A stretch of 63,554 nucleotides of DNA, filler included, from Hausera hauseri (lineage: Eukaryota), in assembly GCA_046269625.1 (NCBI GenBank). It is 11 parts of 11 records of this genome, joined end to end, with 100 filler letters (N's around TTAATTAATTAA, not from the genome) between each part and the next. Parts side by side here need not be neighbours in the genome. Positions count along the whole stretch, not along the records: positions 10,619 to 16,795 come from JBJURY010129650.1; 10 more parts are not named here. One strand, given 5' to 3'. Shown piece after piece: positions 7,777 to 40,273 of the stretch (the first letter of the stretch is position 1; each line of letters opens with the position of its first letter). A model generated the notes under the pieces. It had not been told where the DNA came from. It did not search any database and saw only the letters and a program-made list of their open reading frames with translations. The position numbers and the translations under genes are program-made.

Positions 7777-8978
7777 TTATACAATGACGGTTCCGTTTTT
7801 CGTTATTTCAACCTCGGCATCAAATACACCGTAAATTTACATCACGGTAGATTGCTTCAACGTTCTAACAAAGTGAATCTCCAGTCCCAGGTTTCCCTGC
7901 TGAGGTAATTGAGTCTGTTCAACGTCATAATTCGGAGCTAGGACAAAGGTAAAGAACGGATAGATGGACTTGAATAAATCCATTGATATTCTGCTGTTGA
8001 CATTTTTGTTCAGCAAACCCATGTTGCGCACGATAGATTGCATATATGTGTAAACATAACCGCCAGCCTCGAACTCCTGCTTGTATGTCTCAACGAAATC
8101 CGCATTCTTGCCCAAAGTGACGTAATTTACATTTATATGGGTAAACGTTTTCGAATAGGTGATATAACTGGCCGTTTCTTGAGCAGTCATTTGAAATGTA
8201 ACGAGCACAAAATTCGACAATCGCATGTCGCCGAACAGTGCATCTTTGTAAAACGTAGTTGAACCTTTGGGTATGGTGTAAAAGACGAGTTCTGTGAGTT
8301 GTAATGGGTAATGGGCATTTTGTGTTTCCAAGCCCAATCAATGCCTCTTGAGAACAAATGGCTCTACCTTTACACGACGTACGTATAACCGTGCCTTGGT
8401 GATTTTCAGTATGACTTTGAGATTTGCAACTGAAGCTTTGAAACAAAAGATATTGTCGCTTCATTTGAGCCGAATCATGGCTTTAACACTAAGCATTAGG
8501 TATTTCGGCTGATCGAAAAAGTTAAAGTACAGCGATCCACCCATTGTAAGTACTTTTGATTCTGCCACCCATGCCGGACGGTCAAATGAGTCGTTTTCGT
8601 GCCTGTACTGTAATTCAGAGCCGTTTCAATGAGTGCTTTGATTTTGTATAGACTGGTGTTGCCTTCAATTTCGACGCTGTTTAAGTCCGTGAAGCCTCTT
8701 GGAATAGTGTGAGGACAAAGTAATTGGCCGGTGTAACAGTGTCTGTTGCAGCAAGAACCGTTGATGCCTCCTTTTTAACAATGCCTTTTTGCATACAGTA
8801 GCGTGCCATTCAAATCGAGGTATCCATTGTCCAATGCTATAATGTTAAATCGAGTGTCAAAATTATCGTCGGTTGAAACAAAATCAACGGGGTAGACTTC
8901 TAAAAATGTTACATTGTCAATAACAACTTGTCGGGCGACTTTGTCAAATATACACAATTAAGATTTTGCAGATGCCAT
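7777..8978 (-). pseudogene. Polinton/adintovirus major capsid protein (hexon-like double jelly roll), disrupted
   Basis: N-terminus MASAKS*LCIFDKVARQVVIDNVTFLEVYP...GYLDLNGTLLY and C-terminus GNLGLEIHFVRTLKQSTVM*IYGVFDAEVEITKNGTVIV match the adintovirus hexon pattern. About 400 codons, with stops and frameshifts. Confidence 0.85.
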
Positions 8979-9349: not shown

Positions 9350-10396
9350 CTTTTTGGTTTCGACGGAAATGAAGAGTTAGAGAGGTTGTGGTACCGTATG
9401 GAAATTCAATATAGTAGCCCGCGTCACAACTGACATTCACTTCAACATTGCTTATAGATGGAGTTGACACAGGTAAGTACATCGGATTATTGAGCTTGAC
9501 ACTAACATTATCTCCAGAAGTATACCGGTTGCTTTCCGTGTAAATTGAACGGAGTAGTGGCACACGTACTCCACCCTCCAGAATCGGTTCAGTGACATTC
9601 GAGCCAATGTATATCTATTTCAGTGCATTTTTCAGCTTTGGTTTAACTGTTGCAACATGTGCCTTCGTACTCGCCTCGAACCGATGTTTTTCAGAACCCA
9701 ATGCCATGGTCAAAGTTTTATCCAACGAAATTTCAACCACATACTTATTCAATTCAAATGTTACGTAGCCATTTTTATCTAACGTGAAAGCCTTAAATAT
9801 ATCTTTGTACCTGTTAGATGAAAAGTGTCCACAGAGTACTGCTACATATTCACAATAGACATTATCGCCTATTGATACATCTGATGTAGACACCCTTTTT
9901 CCAGTAAGGGCAAATTTCACCGATGTGTCGTAAAATACTGGACTGAGTCTTGGTAAAACTTCATAATCACCAGAAACAATCGTACCATTGAGCTCTGTAT
10001 TTTTGAATCCAAATTTTTGTGCCATTTCATTGGACTCGAAACTGACAGTAAAGTCGCTTTTTGAATCAAACACTACTTTTCCCTGTAGAAGAAAAACACG
10101 GATTATACCTTCTTTTACGTCGCTATTTATATCTTTCTTACAAATGGAAGAGTTTCCGACAGAGAGTATATTATTAGTAAGTGTCAGACTACAGGAATGT
10201 GATTTCGTTTCAGTAGCAGTCTTGTTGTACGTTATTTTCATACTACTTTTCAGTGTCACCGGTGCATAGGGATAGTTATATTCCGTCAGTCAACCTCCCA
10301 TCGGCCGGATAAATCTAACGGATTGTCCCAATCCACAACATATTGACTGGCCCAATTGTCTAGACTAGTACTTTGTTTAGACATGAAAATACTCAT
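9342..10396 (-). pseudogene. Polinton/adintovirus minor capsid protein (penton-like), disrupted
   Basis: N-terminus DNWASQYVVDWDNPLDLSGRWEV; C-terminus PLLRSI..NNPMYLPVS..ISNVEVNVSCDAGYYIEFPYGTTTSLTLHFRR. Confidence 0.8.
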
Positions 10397-10518: not shown

Positions 10519-10618
10519 NNNNNNNNNNNNNNNNNNNNNNNNNNNNNNNNNNNNNNNNNNNNTTAATTAATTAANNNNNNNNNNNNNNNNNNNNNNNNNN
10601 NNNNNNNNNNNNNNNNNN

Positions 10619-12490
10619 GAGAGAGACGTAGATGTTTTAAATGTTTTACTGTCAGAACTATGGCGGGTAACTCACGGTCAAATGTTGAATAACGGCTTTC
10701 AGGTTGTTTAAGTTTCCTAGAGTAAAATTCTAGTGATTCATCAACGCCATTGTATATTTGGTGTAATATCGCACCAGTTGCTGTGGTCAAAGCATCGGTG
10801 GTAAGTATAAGATTTGCGTTGGGCTTTGGATAGGCCAGTATTTCGACAGAATTTAGGCCATCGTGTAAGTAGTCAAACTTAGTGACTAAATCAGGAATCC
10901 AGTACACCAACTGCTTTTCTTTTCGGATGATAAATGTGCAAAAGGTGCTGTCAGCTCAGAACAATGGGGTACGTATTTGTGGATGAAGTGGAGTGTGCCT
11001 AAGAAACTTCTGATGTCCGTGGTAGTCGTTGGTAGAGTTATGTTCTTCAATTGTTGTAGTCGATCCGATTGTGGATAGTGGCCGTGAGGAGTGATGACGT
11101 GACCCAGGAAATTAACACGTTTTTGAAAGAAATGACATTTGGAGAAGTTGACTTGCAAACTGCTATGATGTAGTCTGTGAAAGTTAATACGAAGGTGTTC
11201 TTGATGCTGTTTAACAGGTGAAGAGGCAACTATTATGTCATCAATGCATGGATGAGCAAAATCAATGCCTGAGAGTACGGTATCAATGTGCCGTTGGAAA
11301 GTTTGAGAAGCTCTACGTAAACCAAATGGCATAAAGATATATTCGTAGAGGCCAAATGGAGTAATAATAGCAGTTTTTGGAATATTATCAGGTGCAACAG
11401 GAATTTGATGATATGCTTTATGCAAGTCAGTTGTGGAGTACGTGTTAGTGTTGGTAAGGCTGTGCAGGATGTCATTTATGAGCGGTAAAGGATAAGCATC
11501 CATGACTGTTAAATTATTTAACTGCCGATAATCACCGCATGGTATGTATGTGCCATCTTTCTTCCTTACAACATGTAAAGGCGAAGCCCATGGTGATTTG
11601 GATCGTCAGATAATGCCTGCCTTTTCGAGTTCATTGAACTCTGATTCAACAGCTTTTCGTCTGCGAGGTAAAAGTGGCCTTACCTTTTGTCTGATAGGTC
11701 TTTGGTATTCGGTGACTATGTGGTGATGTGTTGTAGAATGCGGTTTGAAATTGATGTCCTTCTTAAGAGTACGGAACAAAAAGTTTTAATGTAGGATTTA
11801 AGGTCAGAACCCAACGATAAGAATGACGAGGGCATATTATTGAAAGAGTCAGTGGCTGTAATTGATGTAGAATGACTGAATAATTCATTAACTACATTCG
11901 GTTCAGCCGATTGTTTCAAGATTGATTTGTTCCCACTTGACGATATTGAAAATATTGATGAATTGTTAAGTATGTTGTTATCAGCCGATGAACAGGATGT
12001 CAAATTGACATTTGAATGATCAGAGGAAGACAAAATGTCCGACTGGTCGTTTGATGAACATTTATTAGAATTTGCAACGAAGTTTCTGCGCAGGAGGCAT
12101 TTATGCTTGCAGTCGACTAACAAATCATATGCAGCCAAGAAATCGGACGCTATTGTAGGAGATCTGATGTTGGCTATGTGAAATTTCCAGGAGAATTTCC
12201 CTGGTAGGTTGGAGAATGTGAAGATCAGTTTTGTGGTACCTACAATGTTCAAAGGTTGACCACAGACAGTGAAGAGTGGAGGTGAGAAAACTGTGTTAGA
12301 TGTAGGAGAAAAAGACAAAGGAAGAAGTGAAAAAGCAGCTCCTGAATCTATAAGAAAGTCTATTTGTGATGTGGCTCCAAATAACATTTCAGCTTTTAAC
12401 AGAAAGACTGCAGAGGCGGTGTTGAAACGGTCAGAAGATTGAACGATATTGCTTGCACCAGAATATTCCGTAAAATCTGGCCGCATTACT
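10619..12490 (-). pseudogene. Ty3/gypsy pol: aspartic protease, RT, RNase H (disrupted, truncated)
   Basis: DFLIDSGAAFSLLP (protease); SPWASPLHVVRKKDG, CGDYRQLN, DAYPLP, DLHKAYHQIPV, MPFGL, CIDDII (RT); LTTDA..YSRKL..RYSTFDREL (RNase H). Confidence 0.92.
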
Positions 12491-13527
12491 AGTTTTTGAA
12501 GGATTTGGAGAAAGGAAAGAAGAGGAAGAAAAAGGAGGAGATTTATTCTTGTAGTGTTTGCAACCAGACACACATGATCTGGTCTGTGATTAATACTTGT
12601 TGTAGTAGATGCAAATAGGGTTGCCCACAGCATATCGTTTGCTGTAGAATCGACAACCCAAGAGGCACTTCCTTGCATCCCTTCGAAATCGCGTGTGATA
12701 GAAGCACGGCATGCACCCGCGAGGTGAAGTGGATCGAGTAAAGTGTCTTGAAGTGCTTCGCTCCCTTGAAGGTCTGGTGTTACTTCATCGAGGCCTATTA
12801 AGATTGTTTAGTTGGAAAGTAATGGCCGAAATTGATTGTTGTAACAAGTTAATTTGTTGTTGCATCATTTGCAATTGTTGAACGAAAATTTTGGTGTCTA
12901 TATTTTGCGTTTGTCTGCAATCGCAATTTGGAGAGAATTATTTGCGTAAAGGATTTTGAAAGACTTATCAGCCATTATGGCCAATTTTTCAATAGAGGTA
13001 GACTTGTTGACAACGGTAAGCAAGGCTCCGATTTAGAAGGGCAAAGATGACAGAAAATAACGGCGAATTAAGTCCGCGTTATTTGTAGGTGTTACTACTA
13101 AAGCGCTAAGCTGCATAATGGCCGTTTGGAGAAAATCGGATGGCTTTTGGTTTCCTATCGCATGATCGTTAAAGTATTTTCCTACAATGTGATCTACCGA
13201 AGGTTCGGTGATATATAGTACAGCCTTACAGAGTGCTTCGTATTGTGTCAATGATTGAAGCAGTTCGGAGATATTAATGATCTGCTACTTGACGTTGGCA
13301 GGCAGAAGTATCAAGACTATTGGCCCGCAAAAAGGAGTCAATGATGTTGTTGGATTTTAGCCGCTGTTAGTATAATTGGATCCATGGTTTGCTGGAGTTG
13401 TTTTTATCAAGAAACAAATCCACACAAGATAGATTTAACGAAGCTCCTGTTTGTTGACAGTTTTGTACACGATAGATATTGTATATATTTGTGGATTTAT
13501 AATCAGAGAAAGATTGATTTGAGTGCG
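12490..13527 (-). pseudogene. Ty3/gypsy gag (disrupted)
   Basis: LNLSCVDLFLDKNNSSKPW..KYFNDHAIGNQKPSDFLQ..NNADLIRRYFLSSLP aligns by eye with the gag at 20684-21600. Cys/His-rich C-terminal motifs. Confidence 0.8.
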
Positions 13528-13760
13528 ACCACCCCGAAGATAAAAATGGGGCATGAGGTGGATAAATGGACGCTCGTGGCATGCGAGAGACAAAAGGAAG
13601 TCGGAAAGATGAACAGTGACACATCGATATGTAAGATAGAAGTCAGAAGTGTTGAGTGAGGAGGACAGAGTTGCATAAGAACTGTGCCGTGTCGTTGAGT
13701 GAAGCTCTTATGGTTTTTGTTGATTATTGCTAAAGATCTGGAAAGAAAATTGCAGTGAAG
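13528..13760 (-). other. Ubiquitin-like domain ending LRGG, N-terminal to gag
   Basis: Frame of ORF 13708-14328 continued past one stop: ...DFYLTYRCVTVHLSDFLLSLACHERPFIHLMPHFYLRGG|RTQ. LRGG is at 13539-13528. Confidence 0.6.
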
Positions 13761-14399
13761 TGATCCCAGGGGAACGTTGAAATGCATGGGAGCTTGGGAG
13801 GTTTTCTTTTGTGTTAAAAAGTTTAGGCGTATAACCGGGAAAGCAGTGGCAAATATTGATTGTGATAAAATAATACCTACTTTTTGAACTTACAAACCCT
13901 CTAAAATTAAAATCGATGTTGGCTATTAAAGATGTATGTATGTCCAAAAATGGTGTCACTGGTGGGTGCAAATCAGTGAAAAAAATCTTACCCACCTGTC
14001 TGAATGTGGTTTTACTGAACGCCATGACAGTATTCTCATTATGTCCAAGCATTAACAATGGGATTTTAATACAAAATGATTGAGCTAAACAATTTTCACC
14101 GGCACCGAATGCTGTTGAATAGAAATTTGCACAGTGTGTCCTGATCTGCCTTTGTGGTAAAAGGATATTAGTATCTGCGATTTGGGAAGCCGTTCCTTGA
14201 GTTCGAAAACTCTTCGGATCGCTATTATCACTTTTGACTATCGCATCCTGGGATCTGATTTGAAACGTACAACTTTGATCGGGTGGTACAGTCTTCGATT
14301 TGTTTGTATACCGATTATTCCAGATCACAATAAATCCAGTTACTGGTGCCGTATTGACACTTGTATCACGAGATTTCTAGCCGATAGTTTTCGAAGAAT

Positions 14400-15175
14400 C
14401 TCGGCCTTTCTTGCTTTTCTTATCGTAAGCATTCGCGAAAAGAAAGGTAGTTTTATGGGCATTGAATCACGGATAGTTAGTTTTATCAATCCACGAATGA
14501 TCCTTGTACCAAATAAAGTTGCACCAGTTTTTTGTTTTTGGTGGTGAGTTCGCGTCAAACACTAGTTTAACCGGTTCCCTTTCGCTGATTTTACCTTGCT
14601 AACACCAGCCAATTTTTCGGGCAATGTGTACTTCATTTTTCGTTCTGTTTTTGTGAATCTTTCTGAAAGAGTGAAATTTGACAAGAGTTTCTCGATTGTC
14701 CAATGGAACCTTTTTAAATTTTCATAAATTTTGGCAGAAAGAATTTGTAACTGTGTAATGTCAGAAAAACAGCATTTTTGACACGTGCATTTGCTTCATC
14801 AATGAAATCATTTGGTTTATTTTGATCGTTTTGACAAGCATCAACTCTCTCAGACCATGCCTCTTTCAACTCATCCAAATCTAATAAAAATTCCCAAATC
14901 TCTTCGATGAACTTTTCCAATTAATCCAGATCTGGCTCAGGATTAGTTGAAATCTCTTTGCTCAACTGACTGTAGTCTCTTTCTTTTTTTGGAAAGTCCT
15001 TTCTCAAAACTTTTAATTTCTCATCAACGCCTCGAACGATGGATAAGGTCGTATTAGGTCGATCTTGCAAATCATTCAAAAATGCAACACTTTTATCTAA
15101 ATCCGCATCCAAATCTTCGAATCGCTTCAAAACATCATAGCTTGGACTCACTTTCTCTGTCAGTGTTTCGCCCAC
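14400..15175 (-). pseudogene. Fragment of a spectrin-repeat plus Ig (I-set) giant protein gene
   Basis: Spectrin-like helices VLKRFEDLDADLDKSVAFLNDL..LDELKEAWSER, followed by EREPVKLVFDANSPP..FIWYKD (Ig I-set pattern). Confidence 0.45.
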
Positions 15176-15179
15176 AAAT

Positions 15180-16795
15180 TAACCCGGTTTAGTCTCTGTT
15201 TATGTGCAGTTTGACATGGTTCATTGGCTGATTTTTTATCAATCAGAAATGGCAGGAAAAGATTCCGAATATTGCTCCAATATTGGTCACACCTACTCTT
15301 TATACTATTATGATCATTAATTAATCCTGAATTGTATTCATTTGACAAAATTCGCTTTCCAAAGAAACTATATTTATCTGCAGGAGAATTATCCAGTCCA
15401 CCATGATTCGTAATATTCCAGTGAATTCGCAAATTACGTTTTAAACAATCCACTAAGGTCCATTTCTGGTTAGGTACATCCTTTATTTCGTCAAAAATAG
15501 ACTTTTCTCTGTGATTTTCATTTAAGAAATATGTTGTGTATTTAAAAGGTAATACAACATTACTTGCAATGCATTCTGGTACAAATAGTTCAGACCCACT
15601 TTGTCCTTGTTTAATGACCGAACTAAAAAACAACAATGACAGAATGATGCTGATGTCAGCAATGCACTGTTTGTCGTACCAAAAATACAGTGACACTCGG
15701 ATAAGGTTATCCAATAAATTGTCATCTGTCTTCAAGTTCTCACGAATTTCTGACTTATGCTGTACAACTCTTAGCAATATCAAAACTGTACTGGAAGCAA
15801 AAATAATCATTCTAAAGCTGTCCAACAATTTGCCTTTTAAAACGTCGAGAATATAATGCAGTCCTCCATGAGAAATAAAATATGCGTCCATGTCTGGTAT
15901 TTGGAAAGATATAGCAATCTACTTCGCGGCTGACTTTCTTACACTTATATCCACAAAATCCGAAGTATAAAGGTCAATGACCTTTTGAAAGTTCGCATTT
16001 TCGGAATCTTGAACTTTAACTTGATTCGAGGAACACTGTCTGAAAAGACGATCCTTTTTGTTTTCGTTTGCAATTGTAACAAGAGTCTCGCTAACATTAC
16101 TGATTTTCACCTGGCAATTCCAGATGCCGTTCATTCTCAAAATTTGTTCTAATTTCTGACTTGCTTTTTTGCGGACCTCAGAATTCTGTTGCTGATTTCA
16201 TTCCTATTGTCACACTGCAGACGTTGGTTGATTGGTGTCATGGACTTCGTAAATATTACATTTATAATCTGTCGACAAATTTGACTATTACTATCGGCCA
16301 GTGCCTGGATAAACACTATATTGTTCCATGTAACTTCCATTATTCTTCGCCAATATAACGCGGACAATAAACATTGACTATCCGAAAGTTTACAAAATAA
16401 TGCAGAAGACGTTTCATTAATTTCCACCGTTTTACTGTAGACCCCATATGACAATCATTCTAAAATTTCTTGGTCGCAAGATGAAATTGATTTTCCTTTC
16501 ACTACCGGACAAGGGTTTCGATGACTCTTCAATAATTATATTACTTTTAACAATATCAAAAAGTTCAACAAAAACTGATTTGGAAAGATTGGAATTTTCT
16601 ATTTTGATCAAACGTTCCAAAATATGATCACACTTGATAAAGAGATCTTTATTTTTAAAAACTTCCGTTGAACATATCAGACTGAAGAAGTGTATAAAAT
16701 CTTTAATGAATCGCTGTCCGTATATATGATCGAGACAATCTAACGATTTCGATGTATTGGTAACACTAATTTCGGCGAATTTTATCGGTTCATTG
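15180..16795 (-). pseudogene. RTTN: Rotatin-like armadillo gene fragment, intronless, disrupted
   Basis: LYTSDFVDISVRKSAAK*IAI, LLRVV..LIRVSLYF..ISIILSLLFF and LRIHWNI..GGLDN resemble rotatin segments as I recall them (DVDLVLRKSAAEQLAV, LFRVSLIF, LRIAWNLSW). Confidence 0.65.
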
Positions 16796-16895
16796 NNNNN
16801 NNNNNNNNNNNNNNNNNNNNNNNNNNNNNNNNNNNNNNNTTAATTAATTAANNNNNNNNNNNNNNNNNNNNNNNNNNNNNNNNNNNNNNNNNNNN

Positions 16896-18150
16896 ATCAG
16901 ATTCAGTCAAGAATAGCAAAATTGAATAATATCAAAACCTATCGAAACATGTTTGATAATATTAATGATAAGATCGATAAATTTAAAAGACAAGATTACA
17001 TCTCTGCCACAATTAATTTAAGATGTGAATAATAAATCATGTTTGGTGGGTGATAATTTATACAGCATTAAAAGTTCTATTGCTGAAAAACAGGTTTTAC
17101 TGGACCGTGTTCAGAAATATAAAGATTATACTGGAGATTTTAATGATGTTGAATCTTGGATTTATGATAAATTGAAAATGGTTGGAACGAATGATTTTGG
17201 AGATGATACTGAAAAGAGCAAATATCAAAGATCGAAATATAATGATCAATTAGGAATTATAAAATGTGGTTAAGACAGTATTGATGAAATTAATCAAAAG
17301 GTAACGGAATTGTTACAAAGTCACAATCCAATTTCCGATGATGTACAAAAGGATAAATTAAACAAAGAATGGGCTCGATTATTGGATTTATCCGACGAGA
17401 AAATTCAAGATTTCGATCGAGTTGAAGAATTTCAAAAATTCAAAAATATGTGCGATGAAGTATCGGAATTGATGAATTTAAATAATATTTCTCTACCACC
17501 CACTGCTTGTAAGGATTCTACTGCTTTGCATTCTGTCGTTAAAAAATACGAGAATTTCGATAACGATTTGAAAACAATTCATAACAAAGTATTTAGAGCG
17601 AAAGAAGTCGGCCAAGAACTGATTAATAAATATCCTTTTGAATCCCAATAAATTCAGGAAGAAAATCATCGAATAATCGGTATGTGGTATGCATTACGAG
17701 AGTTTATAAACAGTAAATTGGCGGAATTAGAAGACACTGATCAATACTTGATTCGGTGTAATGAAATTCATCGTGTCAAAAAACTGTTCAATGACATTTA
17801 CGCTGAAATTAAAGCTGATCATCCTATTTTACTCTATTATTGCTGCCGGTGACCAATTGTCAAAGGCGAAAAATTATCGAAAGAAAATGGATGATAAGGA
17901 GGAATGTTTGCGAAAATTGGTGGCTTATAGTGAAGAACTGATTACTAGAAATACGTGTCAATTTGTTGACGAGATTCAATCAAGCATTGATAACGTTCTC
18001 ACTGAAAAGTCTCAACTCTGCGATAATTTGGACAATTGGATTGACAAATGTGAAGACATGCTAACTCAACAGAAAGTTTTAAAAGGTATCGATCAAATTA
18101 ATTCAAGCACCGTTTTACAAGAGGCAAAATTAAGCTGTTATTTAAAAATG
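16896..18150 (+). pseudogene. Spectrin-repeat gene fragments (intronless, with stops)
   Basis: FNDVESWIYDKL..DFGDD, KLNKEWARLLDLSDEK..EEFQKFKNMCDEVSELM, VVKKYENFDNDL: typical spectrin repeats. Confidence 0.8.
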
Positions 18151-18159
18151 ACCGATGAT

Positions 18160-19150
18160 AGAAACGAAGAGGTGATACAAGAAGTATTATCTGTAATGAT
18201 AAATTCCAATACCATGACAAGCGAAGAAATTTGTTTAATACTGGCTTCTAGGGATGATTTCCATATGAAAATCAGTAAACAGTATTTACGAGAATTTGGT
18301 TTCATAAATCAAGAAATTCTGAAAGCAATTAGACGTTTTATAGCGTACGTAAAATGTTCCGGTGAAAGTCAGGAACTTGAAAGGATCATTTATCATTTCA
18401 GTGAACGATATAATGAATGCAACAATAACATATCGGTCCAGACTTGTGAGAAAACTGCAATGACCCTTATTGGGGCGAATACCTACTGCACAACGATAAT
18501 GTATAACAGCGAGAAAAATGTGCCGAGTTCTTCAAATTTTTCGACAAGAAAACGATCCATTTCATGTATAAATCGCTAAAATAGGAGCCCTTTAATCTGA
18601 CGAAGGAAATGTTACAACAGGAAACAAAGAAAAGAGAGAGCAAATCAAATAAAGTTAATGTTGAAGACTCTAAACATTTTGACTCGGGATACATTAAGTT
18701 GAAGCTAGCTAAATCCTTTGAATCCTGGAAAGATTATTACATGTCTGTCGACAACTTAACGATGACTCTGTTCACTACACAAGATGCTGACGTATACTTG
18801 TCTAAGCCAAGACCACCCAATCAAGACAACGAAACATATAAAAAGAATTTTGTGAAAACCCATAAATTCATCAAACAGATATCCATTTATCATTCGGTTG
18901 CATTGACCATTTGGAAATACAAATATCATTTGAGGTTAACTTTAGAAGATTCAACGAAATTTCGTCCAACATTTTCTGCTGAAATTTCCAAGTTGACAAT
19001 CGAAGAGCAAATTGAACAACACAAAGCTCAGTATATTGAGTTTGACAAGATAAAAAAGTTTCTTCAATCTAAAGACAAAGGATCATGTAGTGATTTTAAA
19101 TATCTCAACAAACAGATTGAAAAATATGGGGTCTATAAACGTGTGATAAA
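18160..19150 (+). pseudogene. PSD/EFA6-like Sec7 plus PH/coiled-coil fragment
   Basis: Sec7: KQYLREFGF..ILKAIRRF..GESQELERIIYHFSERYNECN. PH: WKDYY..ISIYHSVA. KFRPTFSAEISKLTIEEQIEQHK resembles the PSD-family C-terminus. Confidence 0.75.
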
Positions 19151-19329
19151 AATCGATATGGATACACTGCATGAAAACAAATATCCACGTGAACTCAGAG
19201 AAAGTACAAGCTATTTATATTCATTGGAAAACAGTGGCAGTTATAACGGAAGCAACCCACAATTCAGTGATTTACTGGGTTTTCTACAAAACCATGCTAA
19301 TAATCTCCATCAAACGGAACTCTATTATC

Positions 19330-19945
19330 AACCGTTTTCGGATGTTGATTACGAAAATCTCACGATAGAATTTGAGAATTTGTGCAACATCTGTGATGAA
19401 AGAAAGACAACGCTGAGTGACAATTTGCAGTATTTGATATTTGACGGAGAATTGAAAGATACTGACATTCGCATCAGCACGAAATTGGCTTTTCTCAACA
19501 ACAATGTTCCAGGTTCCGACGAGCAGTCTTGTCAGAATCAGATAAGAAAAGTTGAAGATGCCAAACTTAACATTGACGCCGAAGGACCCTCGGTACAAAA
19601 TTTGAGACTGCATGCCGTTGAATTACCGACGAAATACCATGATATGGCGCTGAAATCGGTGAAAGACATCCAGTTAAAACTCGATTAGTCAATTGAACTG
19701 ATCAAATTGAAAGAGACTTCTGACGTCCCACCTTCTTTACTATCAGTTCATCAGAGAGACAGACGAATTACTTGGCTGGATAAGATACGAGAATACTCTA
19801 GAGATTGTAGATGATTATGGTAAAGATTAAGAGGACTGTCTGAACTTGCTTGAAAATTTTAATAAACAATATCAAATATTTTTAAGTAGCAGCAATAAAG
19901 TGACATCTATTAAAAACACAGCTAAACAACTTGTAGCCGATGTTG
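19330..19945 (+). pseudogene. Further spectrin-repeat fragments
   Basis: CDERKTTLSDNLQYLIFDGELKDTD..PGSDEQSCQNQIRK; YQFIRETDELLGWI; DDYGKD. Confidence 0.75.
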
Positions 19946-20469
19946 CTAAGTTACATTGGGTCACTTTGCCATCACCAAGTACGGATCGACTAAAGACCGA
20001 TTGCGATGTAATTAGTCAAACTGCTCAGGATATTGACTACCCGGTTATGCAAGTTTGGTCGTTGCATGCTATAGCTTTAACGGCAGATTTCGGAGTTTCA
20101 TCTTTTCTTTTACAATTTCCTCCATCGCAAACTGATATTCATGAATGCTTTGGTAAAGTTCTGAGTGCATTAATAAAAACTTTGGGATTTGAACTTCAAA
20201 GTAATTCTCTCACAATTATCAGTCTCAGAACGTCTTGGACAGCCAATCGTTTGATTTTGCAAGGACATCCTGATTCCCTAGTTCAAAGGTCGGTGAATTT
20301 GCTATATTCCTATTTCTTAACAATTCTTAAAATAACAACTAAAACAGTTAAATCACCGCATTCCGTATTTCTCAGCGTAGCTAATTCAGCCAAAAAGATT
20401 AGTTACTACAGAGCGGGGATTTTGGACGCGCCCGTGTTTTACGCATTGCGCTACACACCCGACATCTGA

Positions 20470-20683
20470 AAACTTCATTTTTTTAACTCTCGCTCGAAAA
20501 TAAACGCACGTACACATACTACATACATCAAACATCAATTATGGCACATTTGTTCGGGGCTCTACAACGAGATTCCGTCTTAGCTTTAATGGATTCTTTT
20601 TGCAGCAATACGATATTATCAACAGCTATACACGCTCATCTTTGAGACCTGTAATAACTACACATTACTGTTTGCTAGGCGGA
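20470..20683 (+). other. Ubiquitin-like domain ending LLGG, in frame with gag
   Basis: FRLSFNGFFLQQYDIINSYTRSSLRPVITTHYCLLGG|SDP resembles ubiquitin QRLIFAGKQL..TLSDY..TLHLVLRLRGG and SUMO IRFRFDG. The N-terminal half is in another frame. Confidence 0.65.
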
Positions 20684-21600
20684 TCTGACCCAAAAGCATC
20701 TTCTCAGGACAAACAAGATTTTGCTGACATTCCCATCATACATGTTCCGCTAAAGCAGTCGCCTTTAGTCCTACCTGCAGAATCCCCTTCGGTCAATTTC
20801 CCTTGTGTCGATTATTTTACAGATAAACAACACTCCAGTCGTACATGGCTGGAATTCCATGCGCAGTGGTTAAAATCGAATAAGATCACTGATCTTTTCT
20901 TCAAAGCCAATAGCCTATTAATACTTTTACCAGCCAACTTCAAGTCACTACTACCTAATCTTTCCGATATTTTTCAGACAGTAGACCCATACAAAACACT
21001 ATTCAACGCCATACTTAAACTCACCGAGCCTTCTCTGGATAACATTATCCAAAAATATTTCAATGAAAACACAATAGGCACACTAAAACCCTCTGAATTT
21101 TTACAAACATCCTTGACCCAATTAAGCAAGTTTGGAGTAAATCAAACCAACAATGCCGACTTATTGCGCAGATATTTCCTTCAATCATTACCGAAAAATA
21201 CGCGCTTTACTAACAGTAGTTGAAAATACCGCTAGGTTAGAAAAGTTAGCACAACTGGCTGATAAAAGTTACGATATACTAAATACACACCATATTCCTA
21301 TCGTCGCATCCACATTACAACCGCATATAACACCACCCAATGCTGAAATCTTAGCGCTGAATAATCATATAAACGCTTTCCGAGCTGAAAACACGGCAAT
21401 ACACCAAGCCATTTTTGCTCTAACTTTTAAAATGGGCAATTTATCCATGCCGCGACGAGATCGATTCAGACCTAATCACAGCCGCGCCTCATCGCAAAAT
21501 TCCAGATCCGCTAGGTCCCCTACTCGACTTATAGTGTGCTATTATCACAATAAATTCAAAAACCAATCCAGCAAATGTTGCTTGGGATGAAAATTCTATA
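20684..21600 (+). pseudogene. Ty3/gypsy gag (one frameshift near 21200)
   Basis: KPSEFLQ, LLRRYFLQSLP, LEKLAQLADK, C-terminal CYYHNKF...KC..G motif. Confidence 0.85.
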
Positions 21601-21959
21601 CACCAGCTGTAAGGTTTCATATTACAAAATATTAAAAGTTATATCTTTAAGAAAATTCAAAAGTTAAATCTCAAAATTTAACACAGACCTGTTCAGAAAA
21701 CAAAATTCAAAAATAAAATCACGAATTCATAACAAAATTTTTCAAATTCCTACAACACCACAAATTCAATCCAAATAAATTAAATACTAAAATTAAATCA
21801 TAAAATAAATCAGAATTACAAGTGCCAAAATAACCAGCACTTATAATAATAAAAATTAACAATCAAGATCTGTGGATTTAATCCATCTGTTTAAATCCAC
21901 AGACTAAAGATTGCACATTACTTTCCAAAAGATAAAAGAAAAAGCAAATAAACTCAAAC

Positions 21960-22531
21960 ATGTCAGCAGCACCAAAAACATTCAAACAGGTACAGATATC
22001 GACAGCCGCGAAACCAGACGAACCGATCGCCAAACATGGTTCAAAGGCCATCCCGGCCGATGCTACTACTCGAGCAAACGCCACGACAACATCATCGACT
22101 CCGGGGTATCGCATTCCAAAGATACCCCGACCGACACACGACGAACCAGGCAGTACCCCCGACCGCCGCGTCGCCTTACGGGAACAAAACCGATCGGAAG
22201 AACAACCACGCCCAATCCAGCGAGAAGCCGCCTCCCGCGGAAAACGCCGCCGCGACACAGACAAGCGAGTCCCGTACCGGTCCTACTCTGATTTTTTGAC
22301 GGTACGACAGCTCCTGCAAAGGAGCCACCTCGTACGACACTTGCTCGGGCTGGAGCGAGAGGATCCTTACTCTTTACCGGCAAGCAGGCTTTATCGGTTT
22401 TACCAGGACGGGGAAAACCGACGTCTCTTCGACTCGTCAGTTTTCCTGCCGGTATTCCTGAGACTGATGACGGCAACCGATTGCCTTTACGAATCCGTGG
22501 CCCCCTCGGAGAGCCGGTTAATTCCAACGCG
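21960..22531 (+). CDS. Orphan Pro/Arg-rich ORF with a long A-rich leader, interrupted by an LTR; probably ORF1 of another element
   Basis: 5' part of the 742 aa ORF. GC-rich, preceded by A-rich 21606-21959. Confidence 0.35.
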
Positions 22532-22863
22532 TGTAAGGACTTCTAGCCCTGAGATTCAGTCAAAGTCACGTCGCGCACGCCGATTGGATACGACATCCAG
22601 AAAGCAATCTCTTCCTGACTCGAGTTCGGATGACACTCCAATATGTGTACGTCGAAACCTCCGAGCCAACCAAGAGCTGTCCTCCACGGACGTATCATAC
22701 GCCTCGGTGGATTCAGTGGGTAATAAATTTGATGTGAATAAACGTTGTGACTCGTATGAGGTCATGTTATATCGTTTTTTCACGTTCATTTTTTGTTGCT
22801 GTTTTACGATTAAGATGTTTTTGCATAGAGTTAGAGACCCTAGAAAAGCAGAACCTCCTAGCA
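22532..22863 (+). repeat. Probable 5' LTR of the second gypsy element
   Basis: Starts TGTAAGG and ends CCTAGCA (imperfect inverted termini). Contains two AATAAA and is followed 3 nt later by PBS-like TGGTGGCAGC. Confidence 0.6.
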
Positions 22864-22865
22864 GA

Positions 22866-24188
22866 ATGGTGGCAGCAAATACGGCACACACGGCCCTTTC
22901 AAACAGAACCGTTCATATTGGTTCTGACATCTCGACAAACGCGGCCGTCGAAAATAATCCGGCTTCAAACACCCTCATCACTAAACGTGATGACACGCGA
23001 CCCGTCAACTACACGAACGATACCGAACAAATGCTAAACTATACTAGCACCAACATACACGATAACAATGCTAACTCGACTCACAAGTCCGGAAAAGCAA
23101 CAACCCCGAGAGAAATCCAATTTCTTGTGCGTGGCCTACACAACACGAGAGCACATCGCTTCTCGTCTAATATGTCCTTAAAGGCGATGCTACAACAGCT
23201 CGCGAGCTCATATCCGGACCACACTTTTTCACACAATGCAACACTGCTAGCCACTTCCAGATTAAAAGGAGGTGTTGACAACCTTACGCCTGACGTAAAA
23301 GCAGAAATTGCTTCAACAACACAGGCCAAACCACCCAATTTAGCATGCTCCACCTTCTTCATAGGTTCGGATGGAACGCCATTGAAGTGGTTTCATGTGT
23401 TTGAAACATGGGCTACTCAATGCAGCATCACTGGCCAACTAAACAAGGCCTTAACACTTATTCAGTACCTGCAGCTAACAACGCTTGCAGCCATAACGGA
23501 TCTGGACACGCTACTGTTAGATGAAAAACCGCTCGACAAGATGAAAGCAGCCATATGCAGAGCATATCTGCCATCCCAACAGGACCAGTTCAACTTGGTC
23601 TTCACCAAGCGACACACAGGGAATATGAAGCCGTCTGCTCTGCTTCACAAGTTACGCTCAAACTTGAGCAATGCTGAGTTAAACCTCCACACTAACCAGC
23701 ACATACTACAGTGCTACTTCCTAAGTAGTTTGCCCAATCAAATTCAAGCAGTATTGGTGCTATTACCGCCCGATACCACTTTCGACGATATGGCATCAAA
23801 AGCCGACAAAATATACGAGTGCACTAAAGGCACCGTAGAATCCGCACTGACGGAAAATACCCATTTCGTCACAACAACCCAGCAAAATCAGCTGGACACT
23901 ATCATTGCCGCATTGCAGGCACTTATAGCGCACAAGAATCCGCCAGCCAGAGACAAACCGTCATCTCAGCGCCAATCCCCCAAGAGAAAGAAAGGCAAAT
24001 TTTCCAACATTTGTTATTTCCACACACGATTTAGCGAATCCGCGTATAAATGTTACCATGGTTGTCAATTCGACAAGCCATCTGCAAACATAAAAATGCA
24101 AGACACTTGCATTTATCATGACCATTTCGGTCCAGATGCAAAAGTCTGTCGACCCGGCTGCAAATTTCACAAGCCATCAAAAAGCTAA
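22866..24188 (+). CDS. Intact Ty3/gypsy Gag with an N-terminal leader and ubiquitin-like domain (23115-23273, ends RLKGG)
   Basis: EIQFLVRGLHNT..SLKAMLQQLA..NATLLATSRLKGG|VDN, then gag motifs KWFHVFE, MKPSALLHKLR, FLSSLP, DDMASKADKI, and two C.(F/Y)H..F....C..GC.F repeats. Confidence 0.85.
   Translation: MVAANTAHTALSNRTVHIGSDISTNAAVENNPASNTLITKRDDTRPVNYTNDTEQMLNYTSTNIHDNNANSTHKSGKATTPREIQFLVRGLHNTRAHRFSSNMSLKAMLQQLASSYPDHTFSHNATLLATSRLKGGVDNLTPDVKAEIASTTQAKPPNLACSTFFIGSDGTPLKWFHVFETWATQCSITGQLNKALTLIQYLQLTTLAAITDLDTLLLDEKPLDKMKAAICRAYLPSQQDQFNLVFTKRHTGNMKPSALLHKLRSNLSNAELNLHTNQHILQCYFLSSLPNQIQAVLVLLPPDTTFDDMASKADKIYECTKGTVESALTENTHFVTTTQQNQLDTIIAALQALIAHKNPPARDKPSSQRQSPKRKKGKFSNICYFHTRFSESAYKCYHGCQFDKPSANIKMQDTCIYHDHFGPDAKVCRPGCKFHKPSKS
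22867..22876 (+). promoter_or_regulatory. Primer binding site-like motif TGGTGGCAGC
   Basis: Begins with TGG right after the LTR's CA end and overlaps the in-frame ATG at 22866. Confidence 0.5.
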
Positions 24189-26183: not shown

Positions 26184-27495
26184 ATGATGAAGTCTGATGC
26201 GGAGTATATTTTTTTTATTTTTATTCGATTAATATTTTTTTTTCGACAGAACATCATACAAGAAGAATATAACGATAAGCAAAGAGAATGATATGCCTCT
26301 GTTTAAAAACACTGATTTCTCACCAGAAGTGTTTGAGGCTTTGCAAAGTAAATTTACAGAGCCTATCAAGGATTTGGCTATGCCCCCGCGTAATTATACG
26401 TTTCGCCACTGGATGCTGGTGCACAAGTTGGACGAAATGCAGAATGCGGAATATTATTTGGACACGTACCAGCGTTTGTATTTGAAGAAACGTTGGTACA
26501 TCCGTCTGCAAGAAGAAAGGGCACCGTCGGGGTTTCATCATATTCATATATTGATCTATACCCCGACGCCTAATAAGATCAGTACGATGTGGAATATTTT
26601 GGTTTCACATGTTTTGCCTTTTCGTGCTGATATTCAGAAAGTAATGAATTTAATTATTAATATTATTATTGTTATTTAGGTTTATCAGTATCATCATAAA
26701 GATACGTTTGACGGGGCGCTCATTGCGGCTTTCGGGAAGGAGCCGTTTAATGTTTGGCGTGAGAATACGTCAAAAAAAGTGATATATAAATTGTTCGATG
26801 AGGCCCCTACGCCTGAAGAAGCTTTGCAGACCATGAAGGAGTGCGATAGGTCGGAGTATATTACTCGCCATCGCTTATTAACTACGTATATTCGTAACAA
26901 GTTCCGAGAGAAATATGTTCCGCAGGAAAATCAAGAATTTTTGCTTCCTCCTATCCATTTTGATGTTGAGAAAGGTGTCAATTCCGCAGTTATTTTTGGC
27001 AGTGCCAATATAGGGAAAACTTCCTATGCATTGTCGCATGGGAAGAATCCCCTTATTCTCCATTCTATCCATGATTGCCCCACGGATTGGACTGGGGAAT
27101 ACGATATTATAATATTGGATGATGTTGGATTTCACGATACGGCTCCCGACCAATTTTTGAATATGATACAATGCAACCATGCGAACGATAATCGGTCGTT
27201 TAGGGGATTATATAAATCGGTAATGATCCCAAGCAAGGTGCCTTTGATAATGACCTATAATAATGAGCAGACATTTTGGCCTTACAAGATGGACTTGGTA
27301 CAGAAGGAGGCCTGTCTCAAAAGGTTGAAAGTGTACAATTGCGGTACAACGATGTTGTATAATGGCAAGGATGTCAGGAACAAGTTTTTGAAGGATAATG
27401 TTGTTAATGTGGAGGAAGAAATTCAAGCCAAGAGGATCAAGTTGAACATTCGTTTGAATCCCGTGACTCAGGCCTGGGAGGCGGCTGGCCAATGA
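26184..27495 (+). CDS. rep: HUH endonuclease-SF3 helicase Rep (CRESS type), spliced: exons 26184-26203, 26250-26640, 26680-27495
   Basis: Motif I-like HWMLVH, motif II EERAPSGFHHIHILI, motif III YQYHHKD, Walker A GSANIGKTS, Walker B IIILDD, motif C IMTYN, Arg finger LKRL. Removing two GT-AG introns (46 and 39 nt) gives one frame. TATA-like tatataaag at ~26116. Confidence 0.88.
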
Positions 27496-28368: not shown

Positions 28369-29638
28369 ATACAATTCTTTTTGGTTTGCATTTATACGAG
28401 GTAAGAATTGCACCGTTAGAAACAAAAAATCGAGATTGGAAAAGCTCGTCATTTTTCATAATTTGAATAATGTCAGGCAATTCCCTGCGATTATTTCTAA
28501 TTGTTCCCACTACACTAATGCCTTTAGTTGCTAATGAGTTAAGTAATTCCATACATGTAAAATAATTGTCACACGTTACATTATGGCCGTTATGTTCAAA
28601 TCCTTGGAGTAATGAATGAACGACAAACACAGGTAAAGGCTGGTTTGTAGGCCGTTCGTTATTAGCCCCCAAGTAAGGCAGACCATTACACACATATTTA
28701 GATTCCAGGTCAACCAACAAAAAATACTTTATCCCAAATTTGTCCGGTTTACTGGAGATGTATTGCGTGAATGGGCATCTACTCTTTGATGGGTATAACT
28801 GCTCATCCACTGTTAGGTTTTCTGATGGAACATACATTTTTTTACAATTTTCTATAAATGGATTCCATATACCCGATGCTAAAGCAAATCTATCACTTTC
28901 TAATGCTCTTGGTCGCTCAGATTTTATATCAAATCTAAGAAAATTCATGATTTCCAAAAATCTATCCCTTGGCATAGAGTTATGAAAAATGGGAGGACCC
29001 CACTGTGTAGACCACAGTTGAGACACAGGTGTATTTTTAGATAGCATCCCCCTCGCATAACACAAACCAATAAAAATTTCTAAATCTTTCAAGCTTACTT
29101 TCCAGTCTGTTAGTCCTCTAAATTTTGATTCCAGTTCCGTGCATTTCTGAATCAGCCGTAAAATGGTTTCATCAAAGAACAATTTGAATGCTGAATAACA
29201 AGTTCCGTCAATCCTTTTCGCAGCATAATTTGTCACACCAGATTGTTTACGTTGAATATTCTGCAAGCTTCTTCGTCCTGACAATTTTGTGTCACAGCAA
29301 ATTTCTTTCCATTTAGTTCCATCCTTCCCATTGAAGTAACGTTCAGTCGCACAATCATCTGGTATAAGTGATTGGTTGCCAGCTGCACAGTCGCTTCTGT
29401 CACTTTGATGTGCCATGAGGGTCGTACTGCAGCTAGCCTGACTAAAACCAACACGGTTGGAAAGTGGAGCAATGCTTTCGTCGGATTCCGTGCTTGTACT
29501 TGATTCCGTGTCACTGGATAGCTCAAAATCATCGCTGATTTCATCATTATCCGACTTATCAAAATCTGATAAGATCCTCTGCAATGCTTCCTGTGCTGTA
29601 ATACGCTTGGGTCGATTCATGATAATTACAAAGTACAA
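28369..29638 (-). CDS. piggyBac DDD transposase (open to the contig end)
   Basis: Acidic N-terminus, MPRDRF..FLRFD, LTVDEQL, KPDKFGIK, VTCDNYFT, VGTIRNNR. Confidence 0.95.
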
Positions 29639-29831
29639 AATTTACTACCTACACAAAATATAACAAACAATTGTATTTATATCAAAACCATAATATTTTA
29701 ATGTTTGGAAAAAATGTGTATTATTTTGTCATAACCAATCAAACATCAACAAATAATTTCCACTAAGTTTACATATTCATTCACATTGATAAACACAAGT
29801 TATTTCAAGGAATCCTGAAAAATATAGTAAG

Positions 29832-37080: not shown

Positions 37081-37252
37081 CGACGTGTACTGTCATTGAA
37101 TCTCCACATTTCCTCGTTACTGATGCCCCAAGCCATCTGTGATTTGACTTCTTTCCAAGCCATTCACATACACAAACCAAGGCATCATCATCAAAAAAGT
37201 TCCAAAAGTTGAGGTACTGAGTGACAAACCGCTATTTTATCTGCCATTTTCT

Positions 37253-40200
37253 ATGGTTTATAGAGACTCTGTCAGTTCAAGAAAACGGTTAGTGTTTGAC
37301 GCCAGTTCTCATGAGGGAGGTGAACTGTCGCTTAATGAATGTCTTTACGCCGGTCTCAGCCTAAATCCCCTCATATTCAACATGCTAATATTTTTCCGTT
37401 TGAATACAGTGGTCGTCCTGGCAGACGTAGAAAAGGCGTTCCTGCAAATATCGTTGAATGAGAAGGATCGGAATGCAGTCCGGTTTCTATTCCCAAGTGC
37501 AAACCCAGGCACAAACGAACATTATATCATCCAAATCTTCAGATTTTGCCGCGTTCTTTTCGGAGTGAACGCTAGTCCCTTTTTGCTGTCCGCCACTATT
37601 AAGGAACACTTACAAAAGTTTCGAGAACTGTACCCCGCTACAATAGAAATGCTCGACAAATGTTTGTATGTAGACGACTTTGTAGGAGCCCTCGACAATG
37701 TTTCATCTGCCTTTCAGATGTCGAATGAAGCCAAGGAAATTATGGCAAATGCAGGAATGAACTTATGCAAGTGGAGTTCCAATAGCAAAGAACTAGTACA
37801 ATTATGGGAAGATAATGGGTTCAAAACCCATCCAATTCATTCAGAGAGCCATCCTCCTGACAAATTACACAGAGTCCTCGGTCTTCCGTGGAACGTTCAT
37901 CAAGATTACATCACGATAGATGGAAAAGATTTGCTCGAATTTAATGAGGCGGAAGTTATTACGAAAAGAGACGTACTGAGATCAGCGGGTAAATTGTACG
38001 ACGTACTTGGCCTTCTAACGCCATTCACAATAAGGCTTAAATGCCTCTTCCAAGAACTGTGGCTCAGGAAGTGTCCATGGGATGCGGAACTTCCAAGGGA
38101 CCTTCTTCGAACGCATACTCTGTGGAGGTCTGAATTATCCGAGATACCGAACCTGCAAGTTCATAGAAGGATCCTCGACTCCAACCTAGGTGATGCCAAC
38201 GAACTACAAATCCATGCCTTTTCAGATGCCAGTCAAAAGGCCTACGGAACTGCAGTGTATCTGCGTGTGAAGGACAGAGACAAAATCACAGTGAACCTGG
38301 TGGCTTCGAAAAGCCGTGTTGCCCCGTTAAAGAAACTGACTCTTCCGAAACTTGAACTGATGGGGGCATTGCTCACAGCCTGTCTTGTAAAGGAAGTAGA
38401 ATTAATTGTAAGACGAAAGGGGTCACCTACAGTCCATTTTTGGACTGATTCACAAGTTGCGTTATTTTGGATTAAGGGACCTCATCATAAGTGGAAACAA
38501 TTTGTTTCAAATCGAGTGAGAGAAATTCAGATGCTCAGCAATCCTGAAGCATGGTCTCATGTACCTGGAAAATTAAATATTGCAGACCTTGTAACCCGAG
38601 GGGTTAGTGCAGAAAGTCTTTTAAGAAACAAGGACTGGTGGTCAGGACCTGAATTCTTACACAATAATGTGGTCTCAATATTTGAGTGTAGTGACTCTAT
38701 TCCTGAAGAATCCTACATTCTAGAACTGAAAAAAGGGTCCTCTGTTGTAGGGGACTCATGTTTCGTTGTAGCCAATCAAAACGTCCTTTTTGATAATCAT
38801 CTTTTCAAAATTACTAATAATTTTTCTAAACTTGTGCGCATAGTTGCCTATGTTCTCAGATTTATCCACAATTGTAAAAATGTAAAAGCTAAGAAAGGCG
38901 GTTATTTGGAATGTCAGGAATTAGACAAATCAGAATACATTCTCTTAAAAAATGCCCAAATTGAATATTTAGAAGAGATTACCGCCTTGATAAAAGGTGA
39001 TAATGTGAAAGGCAGAAGTAAACTGTCTTCTCTTAATTGTTTTTTTGACGAAAATGGGTTAATTCGTGTTGGAGGACGAATAATCAACTCGAGTGTTAAT
39101 TACAATACTAAACATCCGGTTGTCCTCCCATCTAAACACCCTCTAACTCGCATGATTGTGCAGTATTTTCACTTGAAACATCTGCATGCAGGGCCCCAAG
39201 CCTTGTTGTATCTAATACGCTTACGATATTGGCCATTAAACGGTAGAAATTTATGCAGATCAGTGGTACACAACTGTGTCACCTGCACTAGGAACAAACC
39301 AATTCTAAAACAGCAATTGATGGGTCAATTACCCAGAGAACGCATAGAACCTTCTCCCCCCTTCACTGTAACAGGTATAGATTTTTGTGGACCTTTCCAT
39401 GTAAAGTTCAAAGGACAAAGGAAAGGAGTGTTGAACAAAGTGTATGTGGCAATTTATGTTTGTTTTTGCACTAAGGCCATACACCTGGATTTTGTAAGTG
39501 ACTTGCCTACCGCCGGACTTATTGCAAGCTTGAAAAGATTTTTTTTTTTTTCCAGGAGAGGTTAGGGCTTCCAAAATTTTCACTGACGAAATTTCGTAGG
39601 CGCGGATGCCGAACTGACACGACTTCTAAAAGTTGTAAATTCACCGGATGAACCTTTAGCTCAATATTTCACTGAGGAGAAAATTGATTGGCACTATAAC
39701 CCTCCAAGATCTCCCAACTTTGGAGGATTATACGAAGCCGGTGTAAAATCCTTCAAGTTTCATTTAAAACGCTTGGCAGGAAATTCTCATTTCACTCTTG
39801 AAGAACTCATAACGGTCTTAGCAGAAATTGAAGGAGTTTTAAACTCCAGACCGTTGACTCCGTTGTCAGCTGATTTTGATGATTTTGAAACCCTAACTCC
39901 AGGGCATTTCCTAATTGGCCGACCCATCACTTCCATCGCGGAACCCCAACTTGTAGATGTCAATGAAGGCAGACTCTGCAGGTGGGAAAGGGTCTCCAAG
40001 GCCTCTCAAAGAATTTGGAGACTCTGGAAAAGGGATTATTTAAATAACTTGCAAGAACGCCATAAATGGCAATTTAGTAAGAACAACGTTAAGGTGGGGA
40101 CCTTAGTCCTGGTAAGGGAAGAAAACTTACCAGGCACAAAGTGGCTAACAGGAAGAATAGATGAAATACTCGAAGGAGGTGATGGGAAGGTAAGAATAGT

Positions 40201-40273
40201 TACTGTACGCTTGCCACAAGGCAAGGTACTCAAAAGATCTGTAAGAAATATTTGTGTATTACCTGTGTATTAA
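37253..40273 (+). mobile_element. BEL/Pao LTR retrotransposon pol (RT-RNase H-integrase), frameshifted at the T-run near 39540
   Basis: RLVFDAS, ADVEKAFLQI, YVDD, FSDASQKAYG, SKSRVAP, WTDSQV, HLKHLHAG..CVTC, GIDFCGP, GGLYEAGVKS, LNSRPL, LTPGHFLIG. Confidence 0.95.

Follow-up and report, generated by a model that had tools for sequence, protein, structure and literature searches.

The window analysed here, a stretch of 63,554 nucleotides from Hausera hauseri, consists of contigs joined by N-spacers, and the breaks at 10519-10618 and 16796-16895 flank a contig (10619-16795) with a decayed gypsy element in minus orientation. The element has a Ty3/gypsy-related reverse transcriptase (RT), and its gag lies upstream of protease and RT. 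Ahead of gag stands a diverged ubiquitin-like (Ubl) domain, which we refer to as case 1; two sibling cases lie elsewhere in the window. Read in the direction of the element, the contig holds the following features:

14680..16795 (−): decayed host-like frames, helical-repeat-like and coiled-coil-like, upstream of the element and of no firm family
14350..14361 (−): weak candidate remnant of a primer-binding site (PBS), read by eye against the PBS of relatives; not significant and near the depth boundary
13765..14376 (−): leader, open in the Ubl/gag frame and within the multi-copy element by contig depth
13528..13764 (−): diverged Ubl domain of 79 codons with one internal stop (13710-13708), identified by comparison with relatives, by profile and shuffles, and by a beta-grasp model
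13528..13539 (−): L-R-G-G tail, with a predicted deubiquitinase site after the second Gly, where cleavage would take place
13313..13527 (−): spacer and N-terminal stretch of gag, the gag match at 13441-13313 being in another frame
13317-12934 (−): gag, DUF7041-type capsid region in the LRGG frame, with stops, from alignments with P0001 and P0050
12898-12515 (−): coiled coil and Cys/His repeats, part of the gag at 12515..13317
11719..12807 (−): 5′ part of pol with an aspartic-protease motif, matching the proteases of 12 loci at 30-37%
10619..11605 (−): RT (PF00078; RT match 11605-10889), the contig ending before integrase

The RT matches PF00078 at E 6.5e-24 and shares 49-55% identity with the RT of 11 full-length loci, and the gag stands at 56% to that of case 2. 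With its stops and two frame changes, this copy is dead. In one public sequencing run the depth along the contig is in the thousands on gag-pol, about 190-230 over 13503-14326 and 10-52 beyond 14327, and the Ubl region is thus part of the repeated element and not of its flank. The host-like frames at 14680..16795 (−) could possibly be cargo of the long terminal repeat (LTR), and may bear a likeness to rotatin. For the frame at 14680-15178 no PDB match fell below E 0.075, the frame at 15163-15918 drew mixed helical-repeat families in an atlas search, which serve as leads only, and the upstream helical frame gave 0 matches in a word-based homologue search.

The preliminary description had noticed, in a frame missing from the ORF track, a peptide ending in LRGG about 30 codons before gag homology. 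This peptide is present on the minus strand. Its LRGG lies at 13539-13528 and its frame has a single stop, at 13710-13708; it is because of this stop that the frame is absent from the ATG-based ORF list; gag homology begins at 13441, 29 codons past the GG. Both siblings are on the next contig, in line with the earlier statement that they lie on a different one. Of the damage described, the stop upstream was found as reported, while the single frameshift downstream gave way to two frame changes: the gag stretch 13441-13313 is in another frame, and the LRGG frame resumes from about 13317. The proposed continuation of the LRGG frame into gag is borne out by the intact relative P0050, which aligns over 13800-12934 in one single frame and thereby places the Ubl in register with the capsid region, and in P0001, P0002/P0050, case 2 and case 3 the Ubl is likewise in frame with gag.

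The domain aligns with the Ubl of P0002 at 27/81 identities (33%, pairwise E 4e-6) in an alignment that spans the stop. Against a profile built from the Ubls of 29 relatives it scores 19.8 bits with the tail kept (best shuffle 19.7) and 12.2 bits with the tail removed (best shuffle 9.6), and in either form none of 1000 shuffles reaches its score; when 6330 six-frame slices of the window were scanned with the profile, the 12 best-scoring all lay on the three Ubl-gag cases. Over the 283 codons from 14376 to 13528 the Ubl frame has 1 stop and the two others have 9 and 21, and a frame with at most 1 stop arose in 0 of 2000 dinucleotide shuffles of this stretch. The domain has no Pfam match at E≤0.1 and does not reach the cut-off of PF00240. 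It carries Tyr at position 72 rather than Arg/Lys, and T, H and V at the positions aligned to the Ile44/Val70 patch and Lys48, so that the residues of a signalling ubiquitin are not found there. The stretch 13764-13528 (−) is a diverged Ubl domain that ends in LRGG and is in frame with the capsid region of gag.

A beta-grasp fold, which the preliminary description had proposed as a check, is predicted both for the case 1 domain and for P0001. The AlphaFold model of case 1 (pLDDT 76) has the order strand-strand-helix-strand-strand; its input was an alignment of 34 rows, 5 of them near-canonical ubiquitin, which may have pulled the predicted fold. The modestly scoring matches listed by Foldseek (E≥0.017, TM about 0.5-0.6) and VIA (Z≤6.8, rmsd 2.5 over 73 residues, best rows PB1 domains) are beta-grasp domains, namely PB1, NEDD8, ubiquitin, SUMO, ISG15 and UBX. 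In the model of the intact relative P0001, a leader of low confidence is followed by a beta-grasp domain at about residues 100-168, then by a spacer, again of low confidence, and the helical domains of Gag. Its Ubl compares with ubiquitin at a TM by target of up to 0.80 in Foldseek, and a capsid fold is absent among the 50 Foldseek matches listed for P0001, all of which are taken up by the Ubl.

The two sibling cases are on the plus strand:

20504..21587 (+): case 2, gypsy gag with a Ubl tail ending in LLGG at 20683, in the gag frame
21936..24185 (+): case 3, an open frame of 750 codons with a PBS-like site at 22867, a shortened Ubl ending in LKGG at 23279, and then gag

The same contig carries, at 26233-27492 (+), two adjacent frames with HxH-like and Walker-A-like motifs and no Pfam match at E≤0.01, which we take to resemble a rolling-circle Rep with helicase. 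On other contigs there are a DDE_Tnp_1_7 transposase (28370-29641), a BEL/Pao pol (37148-40270), a non-LTR endonuclease with RT (41782-43928) and a DNA polymerase B of the protein-primed type (62865-63554), as well as frames at 7840-8337 and 9618-10289 (−), which have no Pfam match and are presumably Polinton-type capsid pieces.

A phmmer scan with case 2 returned 48 proteins among 1.84 billion representatives, most of them matched via gag only. Where the gag anchor could be located, GG stands 15-49 residues before the gag core in 33 of 40 homologues, and 6 of the 7 lacking it have fewer than 60 residues ahead of the anchor; with at least 60 residues upstream, di-Gly precedes gag in 31/32 homologues compared with 9/162 background windows. 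PF00240 matches 11 of the 48 at E≤0.05, 3 of them above the cut-off, which is exceeded by P0033, P0043 and P0046 and by the metagenome loci L001, L003, L004 and L005. The Ubl is present in 17 of 18 such loci, the 18th being truncated at the contig start. These domains range from that of L004, identical to ubiquitin at 57 of 76 positions (75%), down to unrecognisable ones; members of one subclade share 50-84% identity in gag and 15-66% in the Ubl. The order RT-RNase H-integrase was found in 4/4 relatives whose full pol frames were scanned. Pfam assigns DUF7041 to most relatives, and the DUF7041 clusters found at 0.79 in an atlas search are a lead only. A word-based homologue search gave 0 matches for case 2 and, for one family alignment, 2 rows, both already known; no relatives were found in a viral contig collection. 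Intact relatives are widespread and encode leader, Ubl, GlyGly and Gag in one frame.

At the C-terminus of Gag (P0001, L001-L015 and 12700-12515 (−) of the window) two CxxH...C..GC repeats replace the usual CCHC knuckle; they are conserved family-wide and confidently modelled. P0039 and P0040 are gag relatives on long branches that cross the PBS and have no Ubl, and P0040 carries leucine-rich repeats behind a short gag part.

The frame begins far upstream of the Ubl. In circular loci a polypurine run followed by TGT marks the LTR start, and 340-690 bases downstream lies a TGGTGTCAGAAG site, a tRNA-type PBS that we take to be that of tRNA-Leu. The PBS was found in 13 of the 18 loci and the polypurine tract (PPT)/LTR start in 9, while case 1 has at most a weak remnant. 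Eight loci have both a PBS and an unbroken 5′ frame (L001, L003, L006, L007, L008, L009, L013 and L015), and in every one of them the PBS comes after the first ATG, in a frame open as far as the GG; in L005 and L012 it is broken between the region of the first ATG and the GG. The leaders of these 8 intact loci measure 126-267 codons at 20-31% GC and contain 0 stops; of the 16 other frames, 15 have 5-28. This wider anatomy, with a frame that begins in the LTR, crosses the PBS and often includes host-gene pieces, was not part of the preliminary description.

At the protein level, a four-residue trace of the PBS occurs in 14 of the 48 proteins, and in each of them it precedes Ubl or gag. P0039 and P0040 keep this trace and have no GG before gag; since they cross the PBS without a Ubl, as Ty1 also does, reading through the PBS does not require one. 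Leader length varies from 56 to 873 residues, and sequence is shared by 1 pair among 21 leaders. Within the window, cases 1 and 2 gave nothing convincing when searched for a PBS, and the remnant at 14350..14361 was not returned by motif searches of case 1. A PBS-like remnant of case 2 can be seen by eye near 19957 and is not significant. The regions upstream of cases 1-3 show no mutual similarity, and the case 1 leader (13765..14376) has zero Pfam matches.

Host-gene fragments were recognised at the protein level in 7 of the 21 leaders, all of which were searched with Pfam and 6 against the PDB, 4 of these positive: DIS3L and CNOT1 in P0002/P0050, STAG/SCC3 in P0007, ARP8 in P0011, HSP90 in P0018, H2A in P0025/P0063, 5'-nucleotidase in P0028 and LRRC47 in P0033. 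No host piece was detected in the other 14, and the leaders of P0008 and P0016 had no PDB match. In P0050 the DIS3L piece stops at residue 361-364, the PBS trace follows from 368, and the CNOT1 piece comes after it; judged by this four-residue peptide trace, host pieces would be located in the LTR. They may instead reflect insertion next to a host gene. In P0025/P0063 the H2A piece (residues 1-120) is in frame yet altered, as expected of a passenger, at positions that we presume to be normally invariant. Directly upstream of case 2 and on the same strand, 16896-19940 (+) holds, in decayed form, Sec7 and PH between two sets of spectrin repeats, possibly a mosaic of host mRNAs. Cases 1 and 2 are both preceded by host-like frames of the same orientation, with Pfam support only for the case 2 pieces; these decayed frames would fit a possible reading as cargo. 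The spectrin on the case 2 contig, together with the DIS3L and LRRC47 pieces of relatives, suggests animal hosts.

Buried core positions remain hydrophobic in the 39 diverged Ubls, of which 31 have R/K at position 72 and 36 have L/I at position 73, giving a family tail of [RK]-[LI]-x-G-G, in which conservation of the GG itself is circular because the GG served to cut the alignment rows. Ile44 is replaced by T/S/C in 31 of the 39 and position 70 is mostly polar, while 6 near-canonical rows keep Ile44 and Lys48. The tail around positions 72 and 73 is what a hydrolase reads, and the Ile44 patch is the receptor patch. From their sequences, the diverged Ubls would therefore seem to keep the former and lose the latter.

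The residue after the GG is Pro in none of 33 relatives; case 1 itself is frame-broken past this point. For statistics we used 31 hand-picked lineage representatives, with the spacers as residue background and the customary classes of small and primary destabilising residues. Because related elements are treated as independent and the representatives were chosen by hand, the resulting p values are too small: 0 Pro against a background of 13% (binomial p 0.016), 1 primary destabilising residue against 25% (p 0.001) and 24 small residues against 37% (p 5e-6). Deubiquitinases (DUBs) are described as cutting linear ubiquitin fusions ahead of any residue save Pro (PMC3692480). Selection for cleavage and for stability of the new N-terminus would be expected to produce the pattern seen after the GG, and this pattern forms the main, if indirect, support for cleavage. 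Taken together, the kept tail, the mostly lost Ile44 patch and the consistent avoidance of Pro after GG are as expected for deubiquitinase cleavage, by which Gag would be released.

A quick gag tree of 57 rows with midpoint root, from which rows shorter than 100 residues or without anchor had been dropped, places the near-canonical ubiquitins in one subclade only, nested among carriers of the diverged type. An aromatic-Leu-Thr/Ser motif is common to diverged Ubls across clades and absent from the near-canonical ubiquitins. The nested position and the missing motif therefore suggest that the Ubl was at least once replaced by fresh host ubiquitin, which we consider probable. Furthermore, L005 groups with L006 and L010, which carry diverged Ubls, at a support of 99/99, and repeated recapture of ubiquitin is suggested; since a single origin of the near-canonical ubiquitins is not rejected (AU p=0.068), we claim only one probable replacement.

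On balance we favour the interpretation that case 1 is the Ubl of a broken gypsy retrotransposon and that such a Ubl serves as a spacer which host DUBs cut after GlyGly, freeing Gag from an LTR-encoded, cargo-prone leader. Translation would start at the first ATG in the LTR, and the LTR end, the PBS and the sequence between PBS and gag would be translated as a disposable leader; a host ubiquitin C-terminal hydrolase would then cut after the GG and give Gag a fixed and stable N-terminus. Since Gag would be insulated by the cut, the element could tolerate host mRNA pieces, which may be acquired by template switching, provided that they leave the frame open. The Ubl itself would derive from host ubiquitin and drift with only fold and tail kept. 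More tentatively, and with rather less than even confidence, one might picture an old gypsy lineage that hands the first Gag cut to host DUBs, uses LTR and leader as an in-frame cargo bay in which captured and shuffled fragments of host mRNA are translated and then set free as chimeric proteins, and periodically renews the spacer from host ubiquitin.

The strongest alternative, although unlikely, is that the Ubl stays on Gag or is only partly cut and acts as a functional domain: an aid to folding or expression, a handle for trafficking/ESCRT or the proteasome, or a masking surface for the capsid. Lineages with as little as 15-40% identity between their Ubls still preserve the fold, some lineages (the 6 near-canonical rows) retain Ile44 and Lys48, and ubiquitin on Gag is reported to matter in retroviral budding (PMC3751857). 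An uncut domain would nevertheless have no reason to retain [RK]-[LI]-x-GG or to shun Pro and destabilising residues after the GG, and in most rows the Ile44 patch is lost. A somewhat smaller chance attaches to the idea that the fusion is cut and that the relevant product is the freed Ubl, acting as a virus-like variant of ubiquitin that is conjugated or jams host ubiquitin pathways. Cleavage would indeed yield a free GG end, near-canonical versions exist, and renewal by fresh ubiquitin fits a signalling role, yet the released Ubl would still bear an unconserved N-terminal leader of 56-873 residues, and its surface residues are not conserved family-wide. That translation of Gag begins at a downstream start or uses a spliced RNA, with Ubl and leader as a relic or a separate regulatory frame, is improbable: a Met directly follows the GG in 4 of 33 relatives and several database proteins are called from a Met just ahead of the gag core, but 29 of the 33 have no such Met, and leader and Ubl are open and in the gag frame despite AT-rich sequence. 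Finally, a chance LRGG in the decayed copy has almost nothing left in its favour, for although the motif alone is weak evidence, as it occurs 5 times across the six frames of the window, and the domain is without Pfam match in a frame broken on both sides, the P0002 match, the profile shuffles without the tail and the frame shared with the capsid region refute it.

Maturation of LTR retrotransposons is normally ascribed to the element's own protease. If host cleavage of the spacer is true, a host protease step would be added to this maturation, translation of an element's cis-acting RNA and of captured host sequence with no harm to Gag would be accounted for, and a route to new chimeric genes would be opened. 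The family also forms a natural series that starts at a ubiquitin of 75% identity and ends at Ubls that are hardly recognisable and have only fold and tail in common; it thus offers a test set for the minimal needs of DUBs.

The design appears to be an undescribed variant of gypsy elements, with a spacer that would be cleaved by the host. Full-text searches of the accessible literature turned up no natural LTR retrotransposon described as having ubiquitin fused to Gag, and the Troyka paper contains 0 occurrences of the word ubiquitin. The elements resemble Ty3/gypsy (Metaviridae) with a DUF7041-type Gag in having gag followed by pol in another frame with protease-RT-RNase H-integrase, and, in the relatives, a polypurine tract, an LTR starting with TGT, a tRNA-type PBS and a size of about 5-5.6 kb; they differ in that Gag is preceded in frame by a di-Gly-tailed Ubl and a leader that begins before the PBS. 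Ty1 likewise has its PBS inside the GAG reading frame, but is of the copia type and has no cargo leader, and the word ubiquitin has 0 occurrences in the review (PMC4974528). LTR elements are known to capture mRNAs by template switching, and in LTR-mediated retroposition host mRNA pieces, sometimes from two genes, are embedded in LTR elements; there, according to PMC5131818, a paper with 0 occurrences of the word ubiquitin, the retrocopy lies in discontinuous elements, whereas here the pieces share one open frame with an intact gag and the Ubl stands between them. Ubiquitin-ribosomal protein and polyubiquitin precursors, like the ubiquitin fusion technique, have a linear Ub-GG-X in which X is never Pro and a cotranslational cut is expected (PMC3692480); in contrast to these precursors, the Ubl here is internal behind a leader, has mostly lost the Ile44 patch and is encoded by a mobile element. 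In cytopathic BVDV, host ubiquitin and other host mRNA pieces are found in frame in the viral polyprotein, where cellular hydrolases set the downstream N-terminus and the captured ubiquitin serves as a hydrolase-cut signal that frees NS3 (PMC8310069). There the insertion is a sporadic and recent recombination, whereas in the elements described here it is a fixed, ancient and strongly diverged retrotransposon trait that stands before the capsid.
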